Shown piece after piece: positions 40 to 13,290 of a stretch of 14,415 bases of DNA. Both the position numbers and the translations under genes were made by a program. The stretch's first letter is position 1; each line of letters starts with the position of its first letter. Below the pieces are notes generated by a model. That model did not search any database. It had not been told where the DNA came from and saw only the letters and a list, made by a program, of their open reading frames with translations. Source of the stretch: a virus (taxonomy: Duplodnaviria; Heunggongvirae; Uroviricota; Caudoviricetes); IMG/VR virus record IMGVR_UViG_2711768057_000001. One strand, given 5' to 3'.

Positions 40-402
40 GGGGCTGATTCTGGATTCGACGGGATTTGCGAAACCCAAGGTGCATGCCGAGGGGCGGTTG
101 GCCTCGTAAAAAGCCGCAAAAAATAGTCGCAAACGACGAAAACTACGCTTTAGCAGCTTAATAACCTGCTTAGAGCCCTCTCTCCCTAGCCTCCGCTCTT
201 AGGACGGGGATCAAGAGAGGTCAAACCCAAAAGAGATCGCGTGGAAGCCCTGCCTGGGGTTGAAGCGTTAAAACTTAATCAGGCTAGTTTGTTAGTGGCG
301 TGTCCGTCCGCAGCTGGCAAGCGAATGTAAAGACTGACTAAGCATGTAGTACCGAGGATGTAGGAATTTCGGACGCGGGTTCAACTCCCGCCAGCTCCAC
401 CA
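40..402 (+). ncRNA. ssrA: tmRNA (transfer-messenger RNA, SsrA), 363 nt
   Basis: Begins GGGGCTGATTCTGGATTCGAC and ends GGTTCAACTCCCGCCAGCTCCACCA (tRNA-Ala-like acceptor/T-arm with CCA). Contains the internal tag reading frame at 129-161. Matches my recollection of E. coli ssrA. Confidence 0.96.
129..161 (+). other. tmRNA tag-peptide reading frame encoding ANDENYALAA followed by a stop
   Basis: GCA AAC GAC GAA AAC TAC GCT TTA GCA GCT TAA read directly from the sequence; this is the canonical SsrA degradation tag. Confidence 0.9.
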
Positions 403-412
403 AATCATGATC
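385..412. repeat. attL: ssrA 3'-terminal core sequence, left junction of the integrated island
   Basis: CTCCCGCCAGCTCCACCAAATCATGATC recurs in imperfect form at 9323-9348 (CTCCGCCAGCTCCACCAATCATGATT). Confidence 0.75.
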
Positions 413-438
413 CGGATACGTCCGGTGAAGTACAGAAA

Positions 439-470
439 GCCCGCACAGCACAAGCCCTGCGGGCTTTTTT
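439..470 (+). terminator. Rho-independent terminator downstream of ssrA
   Basis: Stem GCCCGCA (439-445) paired with TGCGGGC (458-464), followed by TTTTTT (465-470). Confidence 0.7.
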
Positions 471-514
471 GTGTCTGTCGTTGTCCGAGAACATCCGGCT
501 AAATCCAGAGAAAA

Positions 515-543
515 TTGGTACACGTTTAGGTACACGCTATACT
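515..543 (+). promoter_or_regulatory. Candidate sigma70 promoter for int (TTGGTA, 17 nt spacer, TATACT), overlapped by GGTACACG direct repeats
   Basis: TTGGTA at 515-520 and TATACT at 538-543 with a 17 nt spacer. GGTACACG occurs at 517-524 and 529-536, with an inverted GTACCA at 560-565. Confidence 0.45.
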
Positions 544-585
544 GTGGTCCATTAAACATGTACCAATTATGGAAGGGATCCAGAT

Positions 586-1776
586 ATGGCGCGTATCACA
601 CGCCCCCTCACTAACAATGAAATCCTTAAAGCCAAACCCCGTGAAAAAGACTTCACCCTTCATGATGGTGATGGCTTGTTCTTGCTCGTCAAAACCACTG
701 GTAAAAAACTCTGGCGCTTCCGTTATCAACGACCGGGAAGCAGCAGCCGCACAAATTTGAGTCTCGGCTCATACCCTGCCCTTACACTCGCAGCAGCACG
801 TCAGATACGCGACCAGCACTTAATCACGCTTGCGCAAGGCATGGATCCACAACAGCAACAGGAGCAGGCGTCAGAACAACGCCAGATTGAGTTAGACAGC
901 ATTTTCTCAACAGTAGCTGCTAAATGGTTCCAGATTAAAAGCAGAAGTGTCACAGAGGATTATGCAAAGGATATTTGGCGTTCTTTGGATAAAGACGTGT
1001 TCCCGGCAATCGGTGCGATACCAGTTCAGGAGATTAAGGCCAGAACGATTGTTGAAGCATTGGAGCCAATAAAAGCACGTGGCGCATTAGAGACGGTTCG
1101 TCGCCTAGTCCAGCGTATTAACGAGATAATGATTTACGCGGTTAATACCGGTCTGATTGATGCAAATCCGGCATCAGGTGTTGGAATGGCATTTGAGAAA
1201 CCCAAAAAACAAAACATGCCCACGCTACGACCAGAAGAATTACCCAAGCTGATGCGTTCTCTGGTCATGTCAAATCTATCTGTTTCGACTCGCTGTCTTA
1301 TTGAGTGGCAGCTTCTGACCCTAGTGCGTCCTTCTGAGGCTTCTGGTGCTCGCTGGGTAGAGATCGATCTCGATGCCAAACTCTGGACGATTCCCGCCGA
1401 ACGAATGAAGGCTAAGCGTGAACACATTGTTCCTTTATCACCACAAGCATTAGAAATTCTGGATGTGATGAAACCTATCAGTGCTCATCGTGAGCATATT
1501 TTCCCGAGCAGGAATGATCCAAAGCACGCCATGAATAGTCAGACAGCAAATGCAGCGCTGAAACGTATTGGCTATGGAGGAAAACTCGTAGCCCATGGAT
1601 TACGCTCTATTGCCAGTACGGCCATGAATGAAGCTGGATTTAATGCTGATGTGATAGAGGCTGCTTTAGCCCATTCTGATAAAAATGAAGTAAGAAAAGC
1701 TTATAACCGCTCTACATATTTAGAACAACGTAAAGAGCTTATGTCATGGTGGGGAAGTCGAGTAAATAAAATATGA
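586..1776 (+). CDS. int: Tyrosine recombinase, P4-type integrase (396 aa)
   Basis: Full ORF with a GGAAGGG Shine-Dalgarno upstream. N-terminus MARITRPLTNNEILKAKPREKDFTLHDGDGLFLLV is typical of P4/CP4-57-type integrases, and the C-terminal catalytic region has HGLRS...Y. Position directly 3' of tmRNA fits. Confidence 0.9.
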   Translation: MARITRPLTNNEILKAKPREKDFTLHDGDGLFLLVKTTGKKLWRFRYQRPGSSSRTNLSLGSYPALTLAAARQIRDQHLITLAQGMDPQQQQEQASEQRQIELDSIFSTVAAKWFQIKSRSVTEDYAKDIWRSLDKDVFPAIGAIPVQEIKARTIVEALEPIKARGALETVRRLVQRINEIMIYAVNTGLIDANPASGVGMAFEKPKKQNMPTLRPEELPKLMRSLVMSNLSVSTRCLIEWQLLTLVRPSEASGARWVEIDLDAKLWTIPAERMKAKREHIVPLSPQALEILDVMKPISAHREHIFPSRNDPKHAMNSQTANAALKRIGYGGKLVAHGLRSIASTAMNEAGFNADVIEAALAHSDKNEVRKAYNRSTYLEQRKELMSWWGSRVNKI

Positions 1777-1782
1777 AAAAAC

Positions 1783-1807
1783 AGCATCGCCTTTAATGAC
1801 GATGCTG
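1783..1807 (-). terminator. Hairpin between the convergent int and helicase genes; likely terminator of the minus-strand defence operon
   Basis: CAGCATCG (1783-1790) pairs with CGATGCTG (1800-1807); an A-run at 1777-1781 supplies the T-tract on the minus strand. Confidence 0.5.
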
Positions 1808-1813
1808 CGTGTC

Positions 1814-3712
1814 TTACTGCATATCGAGGAAGAATCTTGATGCAGGATGATATTTATAATCCCCCCAAGGCATCATTCTTTTTTCTGGATAAGTAACAAA
1901 AATCCAACGCCGAGATCGTGTTATAGCTACGAAAGCATTATTTCTTTCTTCATCTAGCTCGACTTTGCTCTTAGCTCGATAATCTGGAAAAACCCCCTCA
2001 CACATACCGATAAGGAAAACTATATCTTTTTCAAGTCCTTTCATTGTATGAACAGTACTTAACATAATCCCATTATTTAAGGTATCATCATTAAGCTGAC
2101 CCAAAGCAAGTGCATTCCTAAATGAGGATAGATTATCACCGAGGCCTTTACGTTTGAATCGTGTCCACATGGATTGAAGCTGCTCTATATCTTTAATCCC
2201 TGTGGCAATATCATCTTCTTTAGCAGAATCTTTGGTATTTGCTCCTAAATTCACCAGTTCTGATTTAATATCTAAACAGAACTTCAAAATATTAGGTGTG
2301 TCTACAGACATATGATCAATATGTGCTAAAACCAAGCTAATTAAATCTTTATCTAGGTTAGATGATTTTTTTATGTCAGCATAGACTTTGCTAATATCGT
2401 AGGTAACATCTGATTCTGGATTTAATTCTAAACCGATTAATTTATACAATCTCTTCCCATCAACCCAATCCTTTGGATTAACCTTAACCCTTATAGCAAG
2501 ATCGACTATTTTCCCAATAAGAGAAACAGGCGATTCATTTCTATCACTACGCTTTAGGAAATAAGGTATATTTCTTTTTTTAAGCTCACTTTCCATAGCT
2601 TTAAAAACAAATCTATTTCTACCTATAACAACAATTTTAGAGCAATCAATATCGCCCTCAATTTCTGGATGTCTTTTTAAATTCAGTATATGTTGAATGC
2701 TATCACAAACCCATATAGCTTCAGATTCTTCATCTGGTAAAGCATTAAAAGATTTATAGCCATCAAGAGCAGCATTAACACCAACTTGGCTATTTGGTTT
2801 TAATTTATTAGCTAATTCAATCACTGCTTTCGAAGATCTATAGTTCTCGTTTAAACAATAAATTTTAGGAGTAAAATCTTTCACGAATGATTTAATAAAA
2901 TAATCTGATGATGAACCATTAAAACCATAGATCATCTGGTCACTATCACCAACCATCATGACATCTTTTATTTTATCACCGCAGAGAACCTTTATAAATT
3001 CGTACTGAGCTCTGTTTAAGTCTTGAGCTTCATCAACAAATAAAGCAACGTATTTTTTTTGATATATTCTTGCTACTGAATCTTGATTTAATAGGATTTT
3101 ATGTGCATATAAAAGTATATCATCAAAATCCACACCACCACTTTCCAATAAAGCAGACTGATAATCTTGATAAATATTCCAAATACGCGGATTGGAACTG
3201 AATTTTATCTTTACTTCATCTTCAGTTAAAAGCTCTCTTTTAATAATAGAGAATACATTAAGATATTGACTTATAATTTTTTCACGATTGCGCTTTTCTC
3301 TAACGTCCTCAACATCTAAGTATTCATCAATATTAACCCCCTGTTCTCTTAAGGAATGTAGAAAAACCTCCATCCGATCTTGGTCACGTTCAAATATATG
3401 TAATTCTTTTGGTAACCCAATAGTATACCCATAACTTTCGAGTACCCTTTGTGCAACAGAATGAATCGTAGCAATCCAAATCCTATCACGATTTTCTGAG
3501 CCATCATCTAACCTTTCAAGCATTTCATCTGCTGCTTTATTTGTGAATGTTAAAGCAACCACACTTCCTCTAGCAGAGTTATTGAGAATGAACCTAACCC
3601 TCTCAGTAAGCACTCTTGTTTTACCAGACCCTGCAGATGCAAGAACTTGTATAGCCCCTCCCATAGGAGCTTTAACAACTTCAATTTGAGATTGTGATAA
3701 ATTATCAATCAT
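1814..3712 (-). CDS. gajB: UvrD/PcrA/Rep-like superfamily 1 helicase (632 aa), Gabija GajB-like
   Basis: SF1 helicase motifs read from the translation: I AGSGKT, Ia TFTNKAADEM, II VDEAQD, III VGDSDQMIYGF, IV NYRSS, V TVHTMKGLEKDIVF, VI VAITRSRR. Start ATG overlaps the upstream OLD-like stop (ATGA at 3709-3712). Confidence 0.8.
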   Translation of the reverse strand: MIDNLSQSQIEVVKAPMGGAIQVLASAGSGKTRVLTERVRFILNNSARGSVVALTFTNKAADEMLERLDDGSENRDRIWIATIHSVAQRVLESYGYTIGLPKELHIFERDQDRMEVFLHSLREQGVNIDEYLDVEDVREKRNREKIISQYLNVFSIIKRELLTEDEVKIKFSSNPRIWNIYQDYQSALLESGGVDFDDILLYAHKILLNQDSVARIYQKKYVALFVDEAQDLNRAQYEFIKVLCGDKIKDVMMVGDSDQMIYGFNGSSSDYFIKSFVKDFTPKIYCLNENYRSSKAVIELANKLKPNSQVGVNAALDGYKSFNALPDEESEAIWVCDSIQHILNLKRHPEIEGDIDCSKIVVIGRNRFVFKAMESELKKRNIPYFLKRSDRNESPVSLIGKIVDLAIRVKVNPKDWVDGKRLYKLIGLELNPESDVTYDISKVYADIKKSSNLDKDLISLVLAHIDHMSVDTPNILKFCLDIKSELVNLGANTKDSAKEDDIATGIKDIEQLQSMWTRFKRKGLGDNLSSFRNALALGQLNDDTLNNGIMLSTVHTMKGLEKDIVFLIGMCEGVFPDYRAKSKVELDEERNNAFVAITRSRRWIFVTYPEKRMMPWGDYKYHPASRFFLDMQ

Positions 3713-5484
3713 AGCTCAAGCCATCCCCTAACTTTATTAAATGCAATAATAACAGATTCCGGAAGTAATTCCTCAATTCTCTTTCCATTTGCATTCTGTG
3801 CTAGAATCACCCCTAAATACCCTGCATAACTAGCTTTTGAGTCACGCATTTTTTCAATTATAGCACTATCTTGTAAAGCCTCTATTTCTCTTTTCTTGGC
3901 ATCTCGATACCGTTCATTAGGACTAGCTTTGGTTTCACTTAACACTAATGATTCAATTATTTCCTCACGAATATTCAACTCGTTGTATAACTCAGCTTCA
4001 ATATCATTTGTTTCTTTGAGGAACTCTAAGGAGAAACAATCAGGATTCAATACGAGGCCATCTTCACGAACTAAACGTGCTACCTGACGGTTTATCTCAC
4101 CATGAGTATCACCATCATTATCACTAATAATACAGACAGGGATACCTAAATTACTTGCAAGTTTAATGAATGGTGGGTAATTTTTACCACTGACACTTAC
4201 ACAGTTAACTCCAACACTGAACATCGTCCTACCGAAATACAATTCAAACATGGATGGTATTAATTGTTCTTCTGTAACACCCTCACATAAAATTAAGGCT
4301 CGAGAGAAAAGCAACTCACCACGGGTTAACATTATCTCCCTTTTTAATGCATTTTTTTCATCATGTTCAATTCTTTTCTTCAGACAATTTACTGTTACTC
4401 CATCACCTTTCTTTATGAATGATCTTATATCTTCTATCTCAGCCATTGCGCTCAGGTATGGTGAATGAGTACTCAGTATAATTTGTCCCTGAGATGATGA
4501 TAACTGTTTAAACAAGGTTCTTTGTGCATTGGGATGTAGATGCGCTTCTGGCTCTTCAGCTCCAACAATTGGATGTAGCGCCTTATTTTCGAGCTCATGC
4601 CGCTCATGCATAAAGCTTAAAAACGATTGAACTGTAAGCATTGAAGCCCAACTTCTCGTCCCCGTGCCATGATATTCCATTGAAAATGAATGGTTTTCTT
4701 CATCTCCGAAATGTACTGTAAATTGCTTTGATAGATCTCGGATTTTTTTAGGGAAAGGAGTTATTTCTGTGTGGCTTGATCCTAGAAATGATTGGTTTAA
4801 CCCTTGAAGTGAATTTTTTAAGCTTTGAAGCGGCTCACTTCTACTCACTGCGGTTTCATTTATTGAACTTATCATTTCTTCAAGTGCAGTAACATCTTCA
4901 TCTTCATATTTAATATATGATAAGACCTTCCCTATATATGAGCTTTTATCTTTAAGCTCATGATGTATATCCCTCTGAGCCTCAATACAAATATAGGGGA
5001 TTGCATCAACTTTTGTTCTTACCTTTCTTCTCTCGTTGACAACAATGTCTTTCCATCCCTCAAACTCCCCCCATTCATTCAAATAATAACGTTGTGTATT
5101 AAACCCACCTTTTATCTCATCTGGCTGAACTTTTGTACGAATAGCCACAAACTCATGTCCATTTGCATCTACTGCAATATTATCACCGAAAACATCAATC
5201 CATTTTTCGTCAAACTCTTCTGTTTTATTACAATGTTCATCCGTAGGTATTATTTTTAAGTCAACGATAACTTCATTAACTTTTAATCCAGAACTATCTA
5301 TATGAAGATCTTCATCACTAAAGTAACGTTGGTAATCACCTAAAGCTAGTTGCAACGATTTTAGGAAAGATGTTTTCCCCGCATTGTTTGTACCTAACAA
5401 AACGGCAATACGTCCTAGCTCAACCTCAATTTCCTTTATACCTCTAAAACCTGAAATCCTAACAGAATTTATAAGAATTGACAT
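3709..5484 (-). CDS. gajA: OLD-family ATP-dependent nuclease (N-terminal ABC-type ATPase plus C-terminal TOPRIM; 591 aa), Gabija GajA-like
   Basis: Walker A GTNNAGKTS, Walker B-like IVGAEEPEAHLHP, H-loop STHSP, and TOPRIM motifs LILCEGVTEEQ and ISDNDGD. AGGAGG Shine-Dalgarno upstream. Paired in an operon with a UvrD-like helicase, the class 2 OLD/Gabija arrangement. Confidence 0.8.
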   Translation of the reverse strand: MSILINSVRISGFRGIKEIEVELGRIAVLLGTNNAGKTSFLKSLQLALGDYQRYFSDEDLHIDSSGLKVNEVIVDLKIIPTDEHCNKTEEFDEKWIDVFGDNIAVDANGHEFVAIRTKVQPDEIKGGFNTQRYYLNEWGEFEGWKDIVVNERRKVRTKVDAIPYICIEAQRDIHHELKDKSSYIGKVLSYIKYEDEDVTALEEMISSINETAVSRSEPLQSLKNSLQGLNQSFLGSSHTEITPFPKKIRDLSKQFTVHFGDEENHSFSMEYHGTGTRSWASMLTVQSFLSFMHERHELENKALHPIVGAEEPEAHLHPNAQRTLFKQLSSSQGQIILSTHSPYLSAMAEIEDIRSFIKKGDGVTVNCLKKRIEHDEKNALKREIMLTRGELLFSRALILCEGVTEEQLIPSMFELYFGRTMFSVGVNCVSVSGKNYPPFIKLASNLGIPVCIISDNDGDTHGEINRQVARLVREDGLVLNPDCFSLEFLKETNDIEAELYNELNIREEIIESLVLSETKASPNERYRDAKKREIEALQDSAIIEKMRDSKASYAGYLGVILAQNANGKRIEELLPESVIIAFNKVRGWLEL

Positions 5485-5601
5485 ATATTCATTCCCTCCT
5501 TGATTTTATGACATATACATTCCGAATAAATGTAATAATTCTGTTATCCAGATTATCATTTGCGGAAAATAAAATATAGTATATCCCAACCCTGCCGCGC
5601 A

Positions 5602-5620
5602 ATGCTCTCCCCGCCACGCC
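5602..5620 (-). other. cos-like 19-mer resembling the P2/P4 cohesive end
   Basis: Minus strand reads GGCGTGGCGGGGAGAGCAT, 16 of 19 matches to the P2/P4 cos sequence GGCGAGGCGGGGAAAGCAC as I recall it. It sits between psu and the cargo, as in P4-like elements. Confidence 0.5.
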
Positions 5621-5793
5621 TGCCCGCTTAAGGGGCCGCTTTTAATGCAGGTGCAAAGGTAGATTCAGGCCGCGCCGCGACTGGCGCTGGCAGGGAGTAC
5701 AGGGGTGGGAAAACGCATGCAAAACCATGCACCTTATGGATGCATGGCTTTTTTCGGGAAAAATAGCGGAATTTCCGGGGATGTTTTTGCGTG

Positions 5794-6360
5794 CTACCGT
5801 GCGGCCAGTTCTGCACGCCGGCGGGTATAAATCATGTTCTGTACAGGGGTGAATTTTTCACGATTATCATCCCGCGAAGGCGCGTCAGGCCTGTATCCGA
5901 TGGCCGTTAAAATGTCGTTATCCTGTGCAGAATAATTAATTTCATTTCCTGCGGCCAGCCAGACGGAAAGAGCTTCTCGCAGGTAATCTACTGAACGGTC
6001 AAGCGCACGGTTTTTTATCATCTCAGGCTGGTTCTTAATCCCCATCAGCTCCGGTGCCAGTGCGGCGGCCAGCTCTGCGCCGTCCTGCTGCATAAAATCA
6101 TGCAGCCGGTTACGAATGCTGATGCGCTGCACCTCTTCATGCGAGAAAATGTAGCGACCGGCGGCCTGATTAACTTCCCATTTTTTTATGTCAATCAGGT
6201 CGCGCTGCGACTGTAATCCGCGGGAACCTGATGCGTTGTCATCCAGCAATAATTCCTGATATTCCTGCACTGCGGCGGCCAGTTCGGCTTTACGGTTCAG
6301 CCACGCGGTTTTGTTCGTCTGACAGGCTTCATAGGCCTGCTGTAAGGTCAGGGTGGTCAC
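5794..6360 (-). CDS. psu: Psu-like polarity suppression / capsid decoration protein (188 aa)
   Basis: Translation MTTLTLQQAYEACQTNKTAWLNRKAELAAA...KWEVNQAAGRYI...FTPVQNMIY resembles P4 Psu as recalled. GTG start with AGGAGA Shine-Dalgarno 8 nt upstream. Confidence 0.8.
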   Translation of the reverse strand: MTTLTLQQAYEACQTNKTAWLNRKAELAAAVQEYQELLLDDNASGSRGLQSQRDLIDIKKWEVNQAAGRYIFSHEEVQRISIRNRLHDFMQQDGAELAAALAPELMGIKNQPEMIKNRALDRSVDYLREALSVWLAAGNEINYSAQDNDILTAIGYRPDAPSRDDNREKFTPVQNMIYTRRRAELAAR

Positions 6361-6376
6361 GGGTTGTCTCTCCTGA

Positions 6377-6622
6377 TTAGTGGCGGAACGGCGAGCTGTA
6401 GCAATCTTTTACCCGGCGAGGTGCTGCGGGTATTGTCGGCACCGGCGCGGGTTTCTCATCGATGACCGGAGAACGTATCACTTCAAAGATGGACTCATGC
6501 GTTTTGAATGTCGCCGAGCAGTGCACATTCTGGCACTGCAGGTAACTCTCTTTGACGCTCTCGGACATATAGCGGCTGGTGCGGACGTGAGCCGCCGTGC
6601 GGCAGAAAGGGCAGCGCATCAT
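6377..6622 (-). CDS. Ogr/Delta-family zinc-finger late transcription activator (81 aa, single domain)
   Basis: CPFC...C(x)nC zinc-finger pattern (MMRCPFCRTAAHVRTSRYMSESVKESYLQCQNVHCSATF), similar to P2 Ogr. Start overlaps the sid stop (ATGA at 6619-6622). Confidence 0.8.
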   Translation of the reverse strand: MMRCPFCRTAAHVRTSRYMSESVKESYLQCQNVHCSATFKTHESIFEVIRSPVIDEKPAPVPTIPAAPRRVKDCYSSPFRH

Positions 6623-7356
6623 GACAGTAGCCCCCGTGCTTTCAGGTCGGCTTCACGTTCCCGCATTTTTTCCTGCCAGACTTTCCGCTGAACGGGCGTG
6701 GCCGCAACGTCATGCTCCATATGCGGCAGCGTGGAGGCCGACAGCCCTGTTTTAAACAGCACCGGTTCATCGGTCAGACGGATATTGCAGCCCTTTACGG
6801 CCTGTTCAAGCCACGCTTTCACCTGCTGCATTACAACTTTTTCCGGTTCGGTATATCCCTGATGGCCTGTGGTATTGGCTAGCGGGTTATTCAGAACCAG
6901 TATGTTGAGTTTCATTGCCCTGACCAGCGCGCTACAGGTGTCACGCAGGGCAACATCAAGCTCATGCTCTGCATACTGGCTGAGGACGCTGTGATGTGCC
7001 TGACGATACGCTCTGGCCGTCCGGTCACACGCTCCTTTAAGGCTGTCCAGCTCAAAAGACAGAACCTCAGCCATATTGTCACATTCCTGCGCCAGTTCCC
7101 GCCGTGCCACGCGCGTCAGATGGCGTTGTTTCAGCTCGCCGGTAACGACAGCACCACCGGCACGAAAGGCGGCGCGCCATGCGCCGGAATCATTGTCATT
7201 TTCCTGCTCCAGTTCCTTTTTTTGTGCTTTCACCTGGCTGACGGCCGCCGTGGTTTCATCCATACGGCTGGCATTGGCGAGATGCGCCGAGCGGGCAGTC
7301 TCAAGGCGTTCCATTGCAGGTTTAAGGTAGTCGGGAATAACAGCGGTCTGAGTCAT
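6619..7356 (-). CDS. sid: Sid-like capsid size determination (external scaffold) protein, about 245 aa
   Basis: Translation MTQTAVIPDYLKPAMERLETARSAHLANASRMDETTAAV...ARGLLS resembles P4 Sid as recalled. I place the start at the internal ATG at 7356 (AGGAGA Shine-Dalgarno 6 nt upstream), not the ORF-track start at 7422. Confidence 0.8.
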   Translation of the reverse strand: MTQTAVIPDYLKPAMERLETARSAHLANASRMDETTAAVSQVKAQKKELEQENDNDSGAWRAAFRAGGAVVTGELKQRHLTRVARRELAQECDNMAEVLSFELDSLKGACDRTARAYRQAHHSVLSQYAEHELDVALRDTCSALVRAMKLNILVLNNPLANTTGHQGYTEPEKVVMQQVKAWLEQAVKGCNIRLTDEPVLFKTGLSASTLPHMEHDVAATPVQRKVWQEKMREREADLKARGLLS

Positions 7357-7428
7357 GTCAGGTCTCCTCTTCATTTCAATCTGAGGAGATTCTGCCGCGC
7401 CAGACACAACAACACGATTCATTGCCGT

Positions 7429-7446
7429 TGTGGCAAAAATGGCACA
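7429..7446. promoter_or_regulatory. TGT-N12-ACA dyad, candidate Ogr/Delta activator site of the late sid promoter
   Basis: TGTGGCAAAAATGGCACA lies about 75-90 bp upstream of the sid ATG on the minus strand; TGT-N12-ACA is the known recognition pattern of P2/P4 late promoters. Confidence 0.55.
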
Positions 7447-7533
7447 AACAGACCTTAAAACCCGGCTGGCCAGAGAAAGGTCTCAGGAAAACCTTACTCA
7501 CTGTTTGTTTTTTTACTAATAACTATTCACTAC

Positions 7534-7627
7534 TGTTCACCTTGAGAAAAAAGATAAGTAATACAGTTAATTAAAGGGTGAACAGTTGAAGGTCTGACTG
7601 TTCACCGTCTGTTCACCACTGTTCACC
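7534..7627. repeat. Iteron cluster: four direct copies of TGTTCACC (three at about 10 bp phasing) plus one inverted copy
   Basis: Direct copies at 7534-7541, 7599-7606, 7610-7617 and 7620-7627; inverted GGTGAACA at 7577-7584. The octamer is identical to the P4 type I iteron bound by alpha protein, as I recall it. Confidence 0.6.
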
Positions 7628-7709
7628 CTTCTGTTTTTCTCTGCCGATACCTTTTAGACTTTATTTCGATTAAAAATCGAAATATATAACTAAAGGAAAT
7701 AGAAATTGC

Positions 7710-7763
7710 TGCATTGTAATGCAGTGATTTGCATCTGTTTGCCAGCGTTTGCCTTTGTTTGCC
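7710..7763. promoter_or_regulatory. Palindrome TGCATT-GT-AATGCA followed by three helically phased GTTTGCC repeats; candidate operator upstream of vis
   Basis: Palindrome at 7710-7723; GTTTGCC at 7737-7743, 7747-7753 and 7757-7763, exactly 10 bp apart. Confidence 0.4.
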
Positions 7764-7892
7764 ATAGCGAAAAGTCAATGTTTGTTTCCATGAAAATCTC
7801 ACATGACCTGAGGAAAAATATAGACATAATAAGGAGCTACCCGAAGCCGGGCGGACACGACCGGCACAGTATGGACTTTATGAGGTAGCCCG

Positions 7893-8159
7893 ATGCACAC
7901 TGCTTTTTCTTCCCCGTCTTCTGCCCCTGCCGCGCCACTGATACCGGTCTCTGATGCCGTTCAGGAGCGATTTATCCGCCTGCCTGAAGTGATGCATCTG
8001 TGCGGCCTGTCACGGTCAACCATTTACGACCTCATCAGCCGGGAAGCCTTCCCGAAACAAATCTCCCTCGGTGGAAAAAACGTGGCGTGGGCGCACTCAG
8101 AAATCATGGCATGGATGACTGACCGCATTGCCGAACGTAACCGGGGTTATGACGCATGA
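7893..8159 (+). CDS. vis: AlpA/Vis-family helix-turn-helix regulator (88 aa)
   Basis: [48 protein letters not shown] matches the AlpA-family pattern (RLPEV...G.S..TIY......FP......V.W...EI..W). Position divergent from sid corresponds to P4 vis (orf88). Confidence 0.7.
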
Positions 8160-8194
8160 TGGTGACCATTCAGCAAACAGCCCCTTTTTCTGGC

Positions 8195-8224
8195 TTGCTT
8201 CCCTTCGCCGTTTCCAGGTATAGT
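8195..8224 (+). promoter_or_regulatory. Candidate sigma70 promoter (TTGCTT, 18 nt spacer, TATAGT), P4 PLE-like early promoter
   Basis: Hexamers at 8195-8200 and 8219-8224, immediately upstream of the seqA-like element. Confidence 0.35.
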
Positions 8225-8253
8225 TTTATCGCTGTCGCAAAATCGGCAGCCGG

Positions 8254-8279
8254 GCGTAGGAACCCGTGTAATTCACAGG
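8254..8279 (+). promoter_or_regulatory. seqA-like element (GCGTAGGAAC ... ATTCACAGG), upstream target of the immunity RNA
   Basis: Direct repeat of the element at 8461-8501 and complementary to 8416-8436. Confidence 0.5.
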
Positions 8280-8286
8280 CGACAAC

Positions 8287-8309
8287 AGACGCGCCATGCG
8301 TCTTTTTTT
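8287..8309 (+). terminator. Intrinsic terminator hairpin with a T7 tract inside the early leader
   Basis: AGACGC, loop GCCAT, GCGTCT, then TTTTTTT (8303-8309). Confidence 0.55.
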
Positions 8310-8384
8310 ACGTCGTTGCTCAGGCACACCCATTTTTCGGGCTGTGGTGCTTATCCCATAGCCCCTGTCAGATAATGGTGGTCC

Positions 8385-8440
8385 GGGCGGGGCAGCCTTC
8401 GGGCTGGCCGGTATTCTGTGAAGCCGGTATTCCTACCCCC
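8385..8440 (+). ncRNA. Candidate P4 CI-like immunity RNA core (seqB plus a UUCG-tetraloop hairpin); boundaries approximate
   Basis: Hairpin CAGCC-TTCG-GGCTG at 8393-8406. The 8416-8436 segment (CTGTGAAGCCGGTATTCCTAC) is the reverse complement, in bipartite form, of GTAGGAA and TTCACAG in the seqA and seqC repeats. Confidence 0.4.
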
Positions 8441-8460
8441 GTTCGGGTCACCACCCATGA

Positions 8461-8501
8461 GCGTAGGAACTCCGGTGGTGGCAATAACCGCTATTCACAG
8501 G
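8461..8501 (+). promoter_or_regulatory. seqC-like element overlapping the ribosome-binding site of the first early ORF
   Basis: GCGTAGGAAC at 8461-8470 and ATTCACAGG at 8493-8501; the Shine-Dalgarno AGGAGG at 8499-8504 overlaps it. Confidence 0.5.
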
Positions 8502-8512
8502 AGGTTGCCCTT

Positions 8513-8707
8513 ATGGCTACGACCCTCACCCCGTCACACCCGCAGTTTGTTTTTGTGTTTGCCGCCGTTCGTCGCGCCGACCGTAAACTCCGCATCTGTA
8601 TGCTTCGTACCGTTGCCGGTGATGAACACGCCGCACGTCTTTCCCTCGTTCGCGATTACGTCCTCTCGTTTGCTGGCCGTCTGCCGGTTGCGGAGGTGCG
8701 CGCATGA
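8513..8707 (+). CDS. Small early-operon protein (64 aa), hypothetical; positionally kil-like
   Basis: Internal ATG at 8513 with AGGAGG Shine-Dalgarno 9 nt upstream. The upstream 119 codons of the ORF-track call (8156..8707) cover the structured RNA region and are not credible coding. Stop overlaps the next start (ATGA). Confidence 0.55.
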
Positions 8708-8931
8708 GACACTCCACCATTACCGCCCGAGACCTCGAATGTCTGGAGCATATGCGCAACGTCGGCCAGCTCGTCGGCGACCTGATGCAGGTGCAGGACT
8801 GCGCGACCGTTAGGCGTGACCCTGCGCAGCAGTTACAGCTCACCTCCGTGATTTACCTCATGACCGCCCAGCTAGACAGCGTGGTCGAGCGCTGCAATCA
8901 GCACTGGCTGACCGGGGAGGGTAATGTATGA
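8704..8931 (+). CDS. Small early-operon protein (75 aa), hypothetical
   Basis: GGAGGT Shine-Dalgarno 6 nt upstream; ATGA overlaps at both ends indicate translational coupling. Confidence 0.5.
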
Positions 8932-9248
8932 AAAAGCCATTACCACCCGTATTACGTGCCGCGCTGTATCGTCGCGCCGTGGCCTGTGCATGGCTAACCC
9001 TGTGCGAACGTCAGCACCGCTATCCGCAACTCACCCTCGATGCACTCGAAAGCGCCATTGCCGCCGAGCTGGAGGGCTTCTACCTGCGCCAGCATGGCGA
9101 GGAAAAAGGCCGTCAGATTGCCTGTGCACTGCTGGAAGATTTAATGGAAGCTGGGCCACTCAAGGCCGCGCCCTCACTGTCCTTTCTCGGGCTCGCGGTG
9201 ATGGATGAACTTTGCGCCCGTCATATCACCGCACCGGTACTGCACTGA
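8928..9248 (+). CDS. Small early-operon protein (106 aa), hypothetical
   Basis: GGGGAGGG Shine-Dalgarno upstream; start overlaps the previous stop (ATGA). Last gene before attR. Confidence 0.55.
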
Positions 9249-9322
9249 GGGAGAAAATAACAATGAAAATGAATGTACGGAAAAATCCTTTATATTTAAT
9301 ACATTGAGAAATTTATTCAGAC

Positions 9323-9348
9323 TCCGCCAGCTCCACCAATCATGATTG
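9323..9348. repeat. attR: imperfect direct repeat of the ssrA 3' end, right junction of the island
   Basis: CTCCGCCAGCTCCACCAATCATGATT versus attL CTCCCGCCAGCTCCACCAAATCATGATC; the two copies differ by two single-base indels and one terminal substitution. Confidence 0.7.
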
Positions 9349-9468
9349 GACGGTATAAGGACAACACCAATAAAAACAGGAAGTTAGCAGTCTCAGCAGG
9401 ACACCGACCAGACGGTGAAGAGACATAAAAGGATACGCAAAGGAGCCGCGGCTCCTGGTGACATGAAA

Positions 9469-9489
9469 GCCCACAGATGTGGGCTTTTT
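9469..9489 (+). terminator. Rho-independent terminator-like hairpin downstream of attR
   Basis: GCCCAC, loop AGAT, GTGGGC, then TTTTT; resembles the hairpin after ssrA at attL. Confidence 0.5.
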
Positions 9490-9498
9490 CGTTGATGG

Positions 9499-12400
9499 TC
9501 AGAACGACCAGTTCACACCAGCTACCCCGTTCCACGGGGATTCCACACCGGCACCATGGCTATACCCCACCCCAAGATGCCCGCTTAACGTACTGCTGAA
9601 TGAGGCTTTAATACCTGCCTGGTATATTCCACGTCTGCCCGACAAATCATTGACGAAATTACCGTCACTATTCACTTTCACCCGGTTATCATCGACAAAT
9701 TCTTTGCGCACAGCCGCCTTCAGCCACGGCTCAACTTCCATACCGTTCCCCAGACGCATGTTGTAACTCAGCGTTGCACCCAGTTCACGATATAAACTGC
9801 GGGTATCGACTGATTTCGATTCCATGCCATTGGATAAATGATATTCAGGGTTATCAGCGGTGAACCCCCGTTAACGATGCATACGGCGTCAGGTTCCAGT
9901 TACCATCGGTAAATCGCATCCCGGTTTCAATGTGACCGCCCAGCCCGTTGCTGCGATAACTGCCGTTGGCGGCTCCACCGCTGCCAACCGTGGAGTCGCG
10001 AGCTTCGGTACCTGCTAATACCAATAAATTACCGCCATTTTCCAGCAACATATTGGTCGCTAAATTGCCGGAAATGGAAAAAGTGCCGTACTGGTGAGTA
10101 CCGCTGATTTCAATACCGTTAGCCGTGCTCGTCTGGAGAGCGGCACCGCTGTTCTGGACGATATCTGTCGCTTTGCCATTATCGTTAACTGTCAGCGTAC
10201 CGCCTTCATTGATCTTTGTTTTTATTGCCTCTCCGTTAGCTGAAACTGTTTGTATTCCGCCGTCGTTAATCGTTGTCTCATTCGCCACCCCCTCGACGAT
10301 TTGTTCGCCGCCGGTGAGCGTCGTGCCTGTCGCAGTGGCTTTTGTTTTGACGATCTCCCGTCCGCCCGTATTGACCTGTGTTTTGTCAGAAGAGGTGTCT
10401 GACTCCATGGTTAACACGCCGCCATTTGCCAGCAGGATATTGTTCGCCGCACCCTGCTCGATGCTGAACGCGACGCCATCCGCGCGTGTTCCTGTGACCC
10501 GCGTCGCCCTGGTGGTTGCAACCAAAGCGTCCTGGCTACTCTGCTGTATCCCCGTTGCGCTGCCTTTCTCCCGCACATCGAGTGTGCCGCCGTCATTAAG
10601 CACCGAGTTTTCAGCCAGACCGCCCTCATTAACTACCTGTGAACACCCATTAATAATGGAACCTTCCGCTGTCCCGTTTGCCATAATTTGTTGTAGGCCA
10701 GAGACGATATCGGTATTGATTGCCTTACCATAATTCTGAACGGTTTGCGTGCCACCATTGATGTGTGTTTTCTCTGTTGACCCACCATCAACAATTTGTT
10801 CACCACTTTCGATATTTGCCTCAGTGGCTAATCCATATACCGTTTGCTTGCCACCTTTGATATTTGCTTTATCAGAAGTGGCACTGGCATATATTGTTTG
10901 GGTGCCAGCACTATTGAGTACAGTGCCAACATCTTTTCCATAAACATCCATTTTGCCGTTGGCATTAATAATCGTATCAACTGCCCGGGAACCAGTGACG
11001 ACTGTTAATGAGCCAGCGTTTTCCAGCACTACATTTTTAGCTTCTGAATTCCTGATGTAGAAAGCATCACCATAACTGTTGGTTCCTTCGATAAGGGTTC
11101 CGGAAGTTGTGGAAGCAATTAATGCGCCGCCGGATTGTTGCTCAACATGCTTAGCCTCACCACCGTCCTGAACCTCCAGAACGCCACCATTATTAAGTCT
11201 GGTGGTATCTGTTTTAGCCTCCTTCTGGACAATCAGCTTACCGCCAGCATCAACGGTAGTATTTTTCGCCGAGGTTTTAGCCACTACCGTCAGTTCGCCG
11301 GTATTTTCCAGCACAACATAATTAGCCTCCCCTCCGGTAATAGTGAAGTGAGAGAGCTTGTTGTATCCTTCAATATCAGTCCCTGCGCCCGTGTTGGCAA
11401 CTAAAGCACTGCCCGTCTCCTGGTTAACCCCATGTGCAATACCACCGGTATAGACAATCAGCGAGCCTCCGGCGCTAATATTGCTGCCAGTTGCCGTACC
11501 ATCTTTCTCAACAACCTGCCGGCTCCCGGAGGATATAATTGTCGTGTCAGCTTTCCCGCCGCTCTTGATATTTTGCGTTCCGCCGTTGATATTGGTACCC
11601 GTGGCAATACCATGATTATTAATATTCTGTGTACCACCATTGATTATGGTATTGGTCGCGTTTCCGGTAACATCCATTACCCCGCCGTTATCTATTCGGG
11701 TCGCATCAGCTTTAGCATTCGTTAAAACTGACATTGTTCCTTTATCTTTAATAATCGTCTTGTTTGCCGAACCATATGCGTTTATGTCTAAATGACCACC
11801 GTTTTCCAGCAACACATTGTCTGCCACGTGATTGTGGATGGAGAATGCACCTTCACTATTCGTACCGCTCACCGTCGTACCGTTAGTGTTTGTTTTTAAA
11901 ATTGCACCATCGTGCTGGGTAACATTTGTTGCCGTACCACCACTAACATCAAGCACGCCACCGGAATAAACTTCAATAACATCCGAGGAGCTGGTGTAAT
12001 CAACAATTTGCGTACCACCAGAATAGATCTGAGTATTTTTGCCGTTGACTTATTATTCAGAGACTGAGTTCCACCTTCAATCATCGTGTCCAGCGCATGG
12101 CTTTCATATACTCTTTGCTCACCGCCATTTTTAATGGTGGTTGTTCCTACTGTGCTCTGTTCAACATACTGTCGTCCACCATTTATGATTGTGTTCGTTG
12201 CAATACTTCCTTGCGTGATGTCCTGATAACCGGACTTATTTATCGTTGTACCATCAACATGCCCCTGAGTTGTTACTTTCTGCCCTCCACCATCAATGAT
12301 GGTTCCATTCGCAGTCCCCCCACTTATGTGTGAATTACCACCCTTAATTGTCGTTCCATTGCTGATACCACCTGTATAAACGTCCTGATTGCCACTGTCG

Positions 12401-12768
12401 ATTATCGTACCGGTGGAAATGCCCCCGTCATGAATTGTCTGTCTTCCTCCGTTAATGGTTGTATTATTAGCCTGCCCCACAAAATTGTTATGACTTCCTA
12501 CATCTTGATATCCACCCGATTCAATAAGACTTCCATTAGATACCCCGCCATGAACATTCTGCTGGCCATGGTTGATAATATGAGTGTTATTTGTTGTACC
12601 TCGTTCATCTACTCTTTGGCTGCCATCTACAGTCTCATCGTTTACCACACCAATAACATCAGGAGTGAAGGCCGTCATCCCAGGCGGGGCATATATCAAG
12701 GCAGATATCAATAAGGAAAGTACTGAGCGGCGACAATAATGGGGACTGGTCCTGTTCATAAATTTCAT
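9499..12768 (-). pseudogene. ypjA: ypjA-like autotransporter adhesin split over three reading frames, with a short C-terminal beta-domain
   Basis: N-terminal fragment has a signal peptide (MKFMNRTSPHYCRRSVLSLLISALIYAPPGMTA); a 700 aa repetitive passenger region follows; the C-terminal fragment ends ...GVESPWNGVAGVNWSF, the autotransporter terminal signature. The three ORFs (11896..12888, 9854..11956, 9499..9825) are contiguous but in different frames. Confidence 0.7.
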
Positions 12769-13139
12769 CCTCTGAAAAGTGAATACTGAGTAGCGTTTAA
12801 GCGACCTTAGCTCTGCTGCAACATCAGCCCACAGGCACCAGACCAGGGGATTCATCCTGAAGAGACAGCGCAAGTGTATTGTGTTCACCGCTCATCAAAG
12901 ACATCATGATGAAATGATGATATTCCACATAAGAAAGAAGCATTTTTTAAACGCAGTGCGCTGAAGTATGGTTGGATAAAAAAGTCAATCTATTCAGGGA
13001 ATACGGGGGTATTCTTTTCTTTCGACAATCAGGCCGTCGGCAAAATAAAATGATTTACATAATCGTTTCTGATGAATATCTTCTGCTCACATAAAAATAA
13101 CACAATAACTTTGAGATCGCAGATTCTTTTACTTTTACA

Positions 13140-13290
13140 GCATTCGTCCCCCCATTGTTGGGCAAATATAGATTGGGCCAGAGCACGAAAGTTAATACCA
13201 CGTTTGCACAGCTCCTCCAACAGCACGACAAGATGCCACATACTGCGCCCCAGTCGGTTCGGTTTACAGACTACCCGTGCGTCCACCGCC
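13140..13290 (-). pseudogene. Serine recombinase (Pin/Hin/Gin-type invertase) remnant; approximate extent
   Basis: ORF 13029..13286 contains VVCKPNRLGRSMWHLVVLLEELCKRGINFRAL, matching the conserved invertase motif (VVWKLDRLGRS...L...EL...GI.FRSL). The catalytic N-terminus and the C-terminal HTH are absent. Confidence 0.4.

Follow-up and report, generated by a model that had tools for sequence, protein, structure and literature searches.

Octamer repeats in an alpha-less P4-like satellite at ssrA correspond to the iteron core of the P4 replication origin

The closest described system is the replication origin of satellite P4 ('oriI'). In the P4 record (GenBank X51522), rep_origin is annotated at 9086-9809, between ORF88/vis and sid. 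It includes six 'ori type 1 repeats' at 9310-9413, every one of which reads TGTTCACC, and three 10-bp 'type 2 repeats' at 9176-9205. The cis replication region, crr, is a separate feature of that record (4291-4590), located downstream of alpha and adjoining attP, and the same repeat is annotated in it. P4 also carries tandem arm repeats on both sides of the attP core. Work by Ziegelin et al. in 1993 is said to have established that alpha recognises TGTTCACC specifically. According to PMC4234260 (citing Ziegelin & Lanka 1995 and Yeo et al. 2002), alpha binds the P4 origin repeats via its C-terminal winged-helix domain, unwinds the DNA and primes, and crr has been described as required in cis for P4 replication (GenBank note of X51522; 2026 preprint). 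Alpha-less P4-like variants have already been catalogued (PMC8628076).

The window, that is the whole stretch of 14,415 nucleotides analysed here, is 100% identical to Escherichia coli KSC9, a pig isolate. It contains a P4-like satellite of ~8.95 kb at ssrA, with 16 bp of the 3′ end of ssrA directly repeated at its two boundaries. The parts of the element and its attachment site are as follows.

40-402: ssrA (tmRNA)
388..403, plus strand: attL core, ssrA 3′ end (CCGCCAGCTCCACCAA)
586-1776: tyrosine integrase gene (Pfam Phage_integrase)
1814-3712: GajB, and 3709-5484: GajA, the Gabija pair (PADLOC, E=1e-272 and 1e-245)
5596..5645, minus strand: cos-like site, 40/50 bases matching the P4 cos junction
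5794-7356, minus strand: psu, delta and sid (Pfam Psu and Ogr_Delta; Sid by comparison with P4)
6619..7356, minus strand: sid (capsid-size determination), left flank of the origin region, 64% identity to P4 Sid
7893..8159, plus strand: vis/alpA-type gene, right flank of the origin region (Pfam Phage_AlpA), 69% identity to P4 ORF88
8156-8707: Ash/Icd-like gene (Pfam Phage_ASH match)
8231-8308: isrK (Rfam, 74.6 bits), inside the Ash/Icd-like ORF
8371-8458: C4 antisense RNA family (Rfam, 81.3 bits), inside the Ash/Icd-like ORF
8928-9248: ORF106/DUF5375 gene
9263..9277, plus strand: alpha remnant ATGAAAATGAATGTA (codons 1-5, first 15 nt), from comparison with P4 and MSB1_9D
9324..9339, plus strand: attR core, at the right end of the satellite; repeats attL exactly over 16 bp

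The int, psu, delta, sid and alpA genes are all present and in P4 order; of the seven core components of P4-like satellites (int, psu, delta, sid, alpA, epsilon/ash and alpha), alpha is missing. The complete Gabija pair (1814-5484) sits between int and cos/psu, the cargo position of P4-like satellites. This position is reportedly a recognised defence hotspot, as described by Rousset et al. in 2022, and the window element resembles other P4-like satellites with defence cargo in having GajA/GajB there. A second satellite of KSC9, located at selC and described below, carries a Helicase+DUF2290 pair at the same position. The area 8231-8458 is taken here to be the region of the P4 CI immunity RNA, and the immunity region appears intact. 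Where P4 has epsilon and ORF151, a 75-aa ORF (8704-8931) without a Pfam match separates the Ash-like gene from ORF106. As this arrangement is the same in MSB1_9D, a sibling element introduced below, it is typical of the lineage rather than a sign of decay. The 95-aa epsilon of P4 found no homologue in the window (E=3.6); Ash has been equated with epsilon (PMC8628076). Right of attR lie a fragmented and frameshifted ypjA/EhaD AIDA-type autotransporter gene (9499-12888) and a short pinH-like recombinase remnant (13029-13286). These ypjA, pinH and ypjCB remnants belong to the resident island of the CP4-57 site, and ypjA is intact in MSB1_9D.

The octamer TGTTCACC occurs exactly at 7534-7541(+), 7577-7584(-), 7599-7606(+), 7610-7617(+) and 7620-7627(+). 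Over the whole window, seven copies were counted, compared to 0.37 +/- 0.53 expected, and none of 200 dinucleotide shuffles reached seven, which rules out a chance origin of the cluster. The remaining copies, at 10797 and 12882, are perfect but solitary and lie within the ypjA autotransporter remnants. They were rejected as members of the cluster because they are isolated there and because ypjA of MSB1_9D also has scattered copies. The features of the sid-vis intergenic region are listed below.

7429..7446, no strand assigned: TGT-N12-ACA dyad (TGTGGCAAAAATGGCACA), on the sid side; aligns with P4 9493-9510, 0.81 identity across the family
7500..7628, plus strand: ori core, a T-run and, after it, the six iteron positions; colinear with P4 9309-9440 (pairwise and 14-element alignments)
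7524..7531, plus strand: degenerate iteron TATTCACT, at the position of the sixth P4 type 1 repeat (P4 9406-9413)
7534..7541, plus strand: type 1 iteron TGTTCACC (motif count and P4 alignment)
7542..7576, no strand assigned: spacer separating iterons 2 and 3, AT-rich (80% AT), sequence conserved with P4
7577..7584, minus strand: type 1 iteron TGTTCACC, inverted copy (motif count and P4 alignment)
7599..7627, plus strand: three phased type 1 iterons (starting at 7599, 7610 and 7620, 11 and 10 bp apart; P4 alignment)
7736..7770, plus strand: GTTTGCC in three direct repeats phased at 10 bp, which occupy the position of the P4 'ori type 2 repeats' and differ from these in sequence

A preliminary description of this DNA had reported four direct copies and one inverted copy of the octamer, three of them phased at about 10 bp. 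This layout was confirmed, the last three copies being 11 and 10 bp apart, and its tally of five perfect copies stands. The sixth, degenerate copy TATTCACT at 7524-7531 had been overlooked. This variant is also found in the alpha-positive MSB1_9D and in the aligned elements L006, L007, L010, L014, L016 and L015.

Comparison with P4 identifies the cluster. Window positions 7423-7892 are colinear with the P4 ori region: the six iterons fall at corresponding positions, both sequences have the third copy inverted, and the iteron spacings of 10, 43, 22, 11 and 10 bp are identical. The 34 bp spanning the three phased iterons (TGACTGTTCACCGTCTGTTCACCACTGTTCACCC) are the same in both sequences, and the spacers between iterons are 76-80% AT. 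Flanked by sid (to 7356) and vis (from 7893), the iterons (7524-7627) are located between the divergent late operons. The window therefore shares with the P4 rep_origin the repeated TGTTCACC, the number, orientation and spacing of the sites, the AT-rich segment and the location between sid and ORF88/vis. In contrast to P4, one of the six copies is degenerate (TATTCACT) and both a cognate alpha in the same element and a crr in cis are absent. The two also differ in that P4 has three type 2 repeats (TTAAAG-containing, Cox-box-like), whereas the window has three GTTTGCC repeats. Judged from its sequence, the cluster of octamers constitutes the iteron core of a P4-type ori at its usual sid/vis place in an ssrA-integrated P4-like satellite. 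It is thus an already known feature, the textbook P4 origin at its known location. The octamer had been taken for the P4 type I iteron of ori and crr, and X51522, where it is annotated 'ori type 1 repeat' in both, bears this out. The sid/vis region had also been presented as an unusual home for iterons. This view does not hold, since the P4 rep_origin is annotated exactly there and the iterons of every relative examined lie between sid and vis: the divergent region is their canonical place. A literature search with the bare octamer matched only unrelated primer sequences.

To place the cluster among relatives, we used a Sid-anchored retrieval. About ten genera were represented among the 17 loci obtained; of these, 16 include sequence upstream of sid and 12 have enough flank for alpha. 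TGTTCACC was found 185-290 bp upstream of sid in all 16 loci with upstream sequence. The 12 loci with sufficient flank all encode alpha (74-84% identical to P4 alpha), as a rule with another iteron cluster behind it. When the sid-vis intergenic regions of 14 elements were aligned, each of the six iteron positions was occupied in 14/14. Mean pairwise identity among these elements is 0.82 in the ori block and 0.93 in the six octamers, compared to about 0.5 in the adjacent downstream region. The ori core (window about 7462-7628) is present in 1,014 of 5,426 complete E. coli genomes. In this cross-genus alignment, no other non-coding part of these satellites is as well conserved as the origin core with its six iterons, so that the core is a handy search marker.

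The element had previously been described as lacking alpha, and this was verified: the best tblastn match of P4 alpha in the window has E=1.0. No second iteron cluster was found within the element (388-9339). Homology to P4 DNA ends at 9277; all that is left of alpha is the ribosome-binding site and the initial 15 nt of the gene. The origin of this arrangement is apparent from the sibling element of strain MSB1_9D (L005), which occupies the same ssrA site; its ori region is 98% identical to that of the window and shares its six sites. Downstream of ORF106, the sibling carries, in this order, an alpha of 777 aa, a crr of 2x5 iterons (L005 14221-14480), a tandem GGTACAC pair and attR. In the window, a deletion junction lies between 9277 and 9278, and the sequence from 9278 onward is that of MSB1_9D from 14625 (50/50 bases). 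A single deletion of 2,775 bp, corresponding to L005 11850-14624, accounts for the difference; its breakpoints share GAAYGTA/GAATA microhomology. With the deletion, the element lost alpha from codon 6 together with its terminator, all of crr and the tandem GGTACAC pair on the attR side, and nt 15 of alpha was fused to a point ~145 bp past the position of the sibling crr. The attL-side GGTACAC pair is retained at 517 and 529. As P4 arm repeats flank the attP core on both sides, the GGTACAC repeats are, by analogy, probable integrase arm sites, and the window element is probably excision-defective as well as replication-defective. While the lack of alpha had been recognised, its cause, one discrete deletion which also took crr, had escaped notice.

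The window element resembles the alpha-less 'Type B' P4-like satellites of Moura de Sousa & Rocha (PMC8628076) in having int, psu, delta, sid, alpA/vis and an Ash-family gene and no alpha. It differs from them in that its alpha loss can be traced to one 2,775-bp deletion that included crr and the attR arm repeats. Loss by such a specific event suggests a decaying element and not a functional alpha-independent variant.

The deletion junction is present in 3 of 5,426 complete genomes (KSC9, ZH48 and ZH49). A further strain, Res13-Lact-PEB08-01, has the same deletion plus an ISCro1 insertion. All four carriers are pig E. coli and are 99.98-100% identical over the window. Confinement of the junction to four near-identical pig strains indicates that the deletion is recent and arose in one lineage. 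The ISCro1 copy of Res13 (IS66-family; L004 13878-16571) is inserted at ~window 9287-9299, just right of the alpha junction, and is flanked by duplicated CTTTATAT. An IS-mediated deletion was considered and rejected: ISCro1 lies inside already deleted sequence between the duplicated CTTTATAT copies, and is therefore a later arrival. The iterons themselves are undecayed, with five perfect copies and one degenerate copy identical to those of the alpha-positive sibling MSB1_9D. This could hint at continued selection. At a divergence of ~2%, zero changes in the 48 bp of octamers are expected by chance in ~40-45% of cases by our estimate. Given the ~2% divergence of the ori region from that of the sibling, perfect preservation of the iterons needs no special explanation.

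These observations can be placed in the following scheme. In intact relatives, alpha, a primase-helicase with a C-terminal winged-helix origin-binding domain, would bind the TGTTCACC repeats at ori as well as those of the second cluster, crr, downstream of alpha. It would then open the AT-rich spacer and prime replication; here, the region that unwinds is probably the spacer at 7542-7576. In the window element, the single microhomology-flanked 2,775-bp deletion would have left an ori with neither initiator nor crr in cis. With alpha and crr both deleted, the origin should be inert, and it is probably kept by the recency of the deletion, not by a new job. The roles of alpha binding and of crr are carried over, by analogy, from established P4 knowledge. 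On the best reading of the sequence, the orphan ori would be an intact-looking, recently orphaned and inactive relic, its inactivity and neutral persistence being deduced from the losses in cis and from the young age of the junction. Taken as a whole, a P4-type ori which lost its initiator and crr by a recent deletion and is now an inactive relic is very probably the correct explanation. A relic origin was one of three options raised in the preliminary description, and the P4 ori layout together with the removal of alpha and crr by deletion speaks for it.

Two other identities of the cluster were weighed. As crr is likewise built of TGTTCACC-type repeats, and thus has its iteron family in common with the window cluster, the octamers might represent a crr and not an ori. 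P4 crr, however, is a pair of direct repeats of ~120-170 bp with five iterons each, downstream of alpha and beside att, and this duplicated 2x5-iteron unit is absent from the window element. The cluster of the window is not duplicated; it is situated between sid and vis, and its alignment with P4 ori is base for base. This alignment, and the GenBank placement of crr next to attP, refute a crr identity, to which we give practically no credence. The octamers might also be operators for Vis/AlpA or another late-gene regulator acting at Psid and PLL independently of replication, a reuse which had been put forward as another of the three options. They do lie between two divergent late operons, and the late promoters of P4 are regulated by Vis, a DNA-binding protein (Polo et al. 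1996, cited by PMC2603039). In addition, the recombination directionality factors (RDFs) of P2-like phages and P4 typically bind direct repeats phased at 10-11 bp which resemble those of their att sites (PMC7498355), and three of the iterons are so phased. The same source states that RDFs use similar sequences at att and at promoters, yet no TGTTCACC-like motif (up to one mismatch) and no GTTTGCC-like motif was found near attL or attR. All intact relatives checked have a further cluster of the octamer, 2x5, downstream of alpha, which fits an initiator and not Vis. The octamer is also near-invariant across elements in which identity to the P4 protein is only ~64-79% for Vis, as against 74-84% for alpha. 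Finally, the GTTTGCC array at 7736-7770 is a better candidate for such a regulator. A Vis/AlpA operator function of the octamers consequently finds no support and is highly improbable.

The third option was a landing pad for alpha supplied in trans. A search of the host genome for alpha homologues had been suggested, and one was found in KSC9. This strain carries a second, complete P4-like satellite at selC (L024 = NZ_CP018323.1 1,471,385-1,483,000), with a Helicase+DUF2290 cargo (PADLOC PDLC03002, PDLC02999), six perfect ori iterons and a 2x5 crr. The alpha of this satellite shares 98.8% identity with P4 alpha and contains, at residues 671-770, a match to the solved structure of the P4 origin-binding domain, 1KA8 (E=1e-63). 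Alpha from such a co-resident satellite might bind the orphan iterons, with the result that the ssrA element replicates, by hitch-hiking or with amplification of its Gabija locus in situ, or that alpha is titrated and the other satellite hindered. In favour of this, the ori and crr of the selC satellite use the same TGTTCACC as the window, the C-terminal region of the selC alpha is ~92% identical to that of the alpha of the window lineage, which uses the same octamer, and the orphan array is fully intact. Against it, crr, annotated as cis-required for P4 replication, is deleted, and loss of the attR-side arm repeats makes excision into a circle doubtful. Moreover, ZH48, ZH49 and Res13 each show only one ori-like place, so that the trans partner is not constant in the lineage, and iteron intactness is accounted for by the recent deletion. 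We regard such an effect in trans as unlikely. Binding to the landing pad is plausible in the carrier KSC9, where a compatible alpha in trans means that the orphan sites may be occupied, but replication from it is not expected with crr gone. There is a slim chance that, in KSC9-type strains, the selC alpha occupies the orphan ssrA ori, which then acts as an alpha sink dampening the rival satellite or fires in situ without crr. If true, an alpha sink would amount to incompatibility-like interference between satellites, and firing in situ would amplify Gabija and the late-gene region upon helper phage infection. KSC9 constitutes a natural test of interference between an orphan origin and a co-resident satellite.

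The inactive relic origin remains our preferred reading, and the case shows how a P4-like satellite can decay, one deletion having taken the initiator gene together with crr and a set of probable integrase arm sites. Left intact were cos, the late genes and the Gabija cargo, a pattern that fits domestication as a fixed defence island. Beyond correct annotation, the finding is of little import and brings no new regulatory or replication principle.

Several other motifs are found in the sid-vis region. On the plus strand, the P4 type 2 repeats read TTAAAGTCA, TTAAAGCCA and TTAAAGCAA, the former two fitting the P2 Cox-box consensus TTAAA(G/C)NC(A/C) (consensus from PMC3936717). In the window, the GTTTGCC repeats found at this spot were rejected as P2 Cox boxes, a Cox-box scan of the sid-vis region being without match. 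Among the 14 relatives, the spot is hypervariable in sequence (GTTTGCC, TGGCCAA, TGGCAAAC or TTAAAG) and almost always holds repeats phased at 10-11 bp; no such motif lies close to attL or attR. The spot may be an exchangeable sensor site for a helper-phage Cox/Apl-type protein, or a Vis operator. A sigma-70 promoter scan of 7300-7950 gave one weak match, no more than in shuffled sequences, and is uninformative, as expected for activator-dependent late promoters. The dyad at 7429-7446 has the form of an Ogr/Delta activator site and, from what is generally known of P2/P4 late promoters, presumably serves the late promoter Psid. Between the iterons and the GTTTGCC repeats lie two strong palindromes, ATTTCGATTAAAAATCGAAAT (7663-7683) and a 12-pair hairpin, AAATTGCTGCATTGTAATGCAGTGATTT (7703-7730). 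The latter was flagged by the terminator scan; it is common to MSB1_9D and the aligned element L007 and is not shared with P4.
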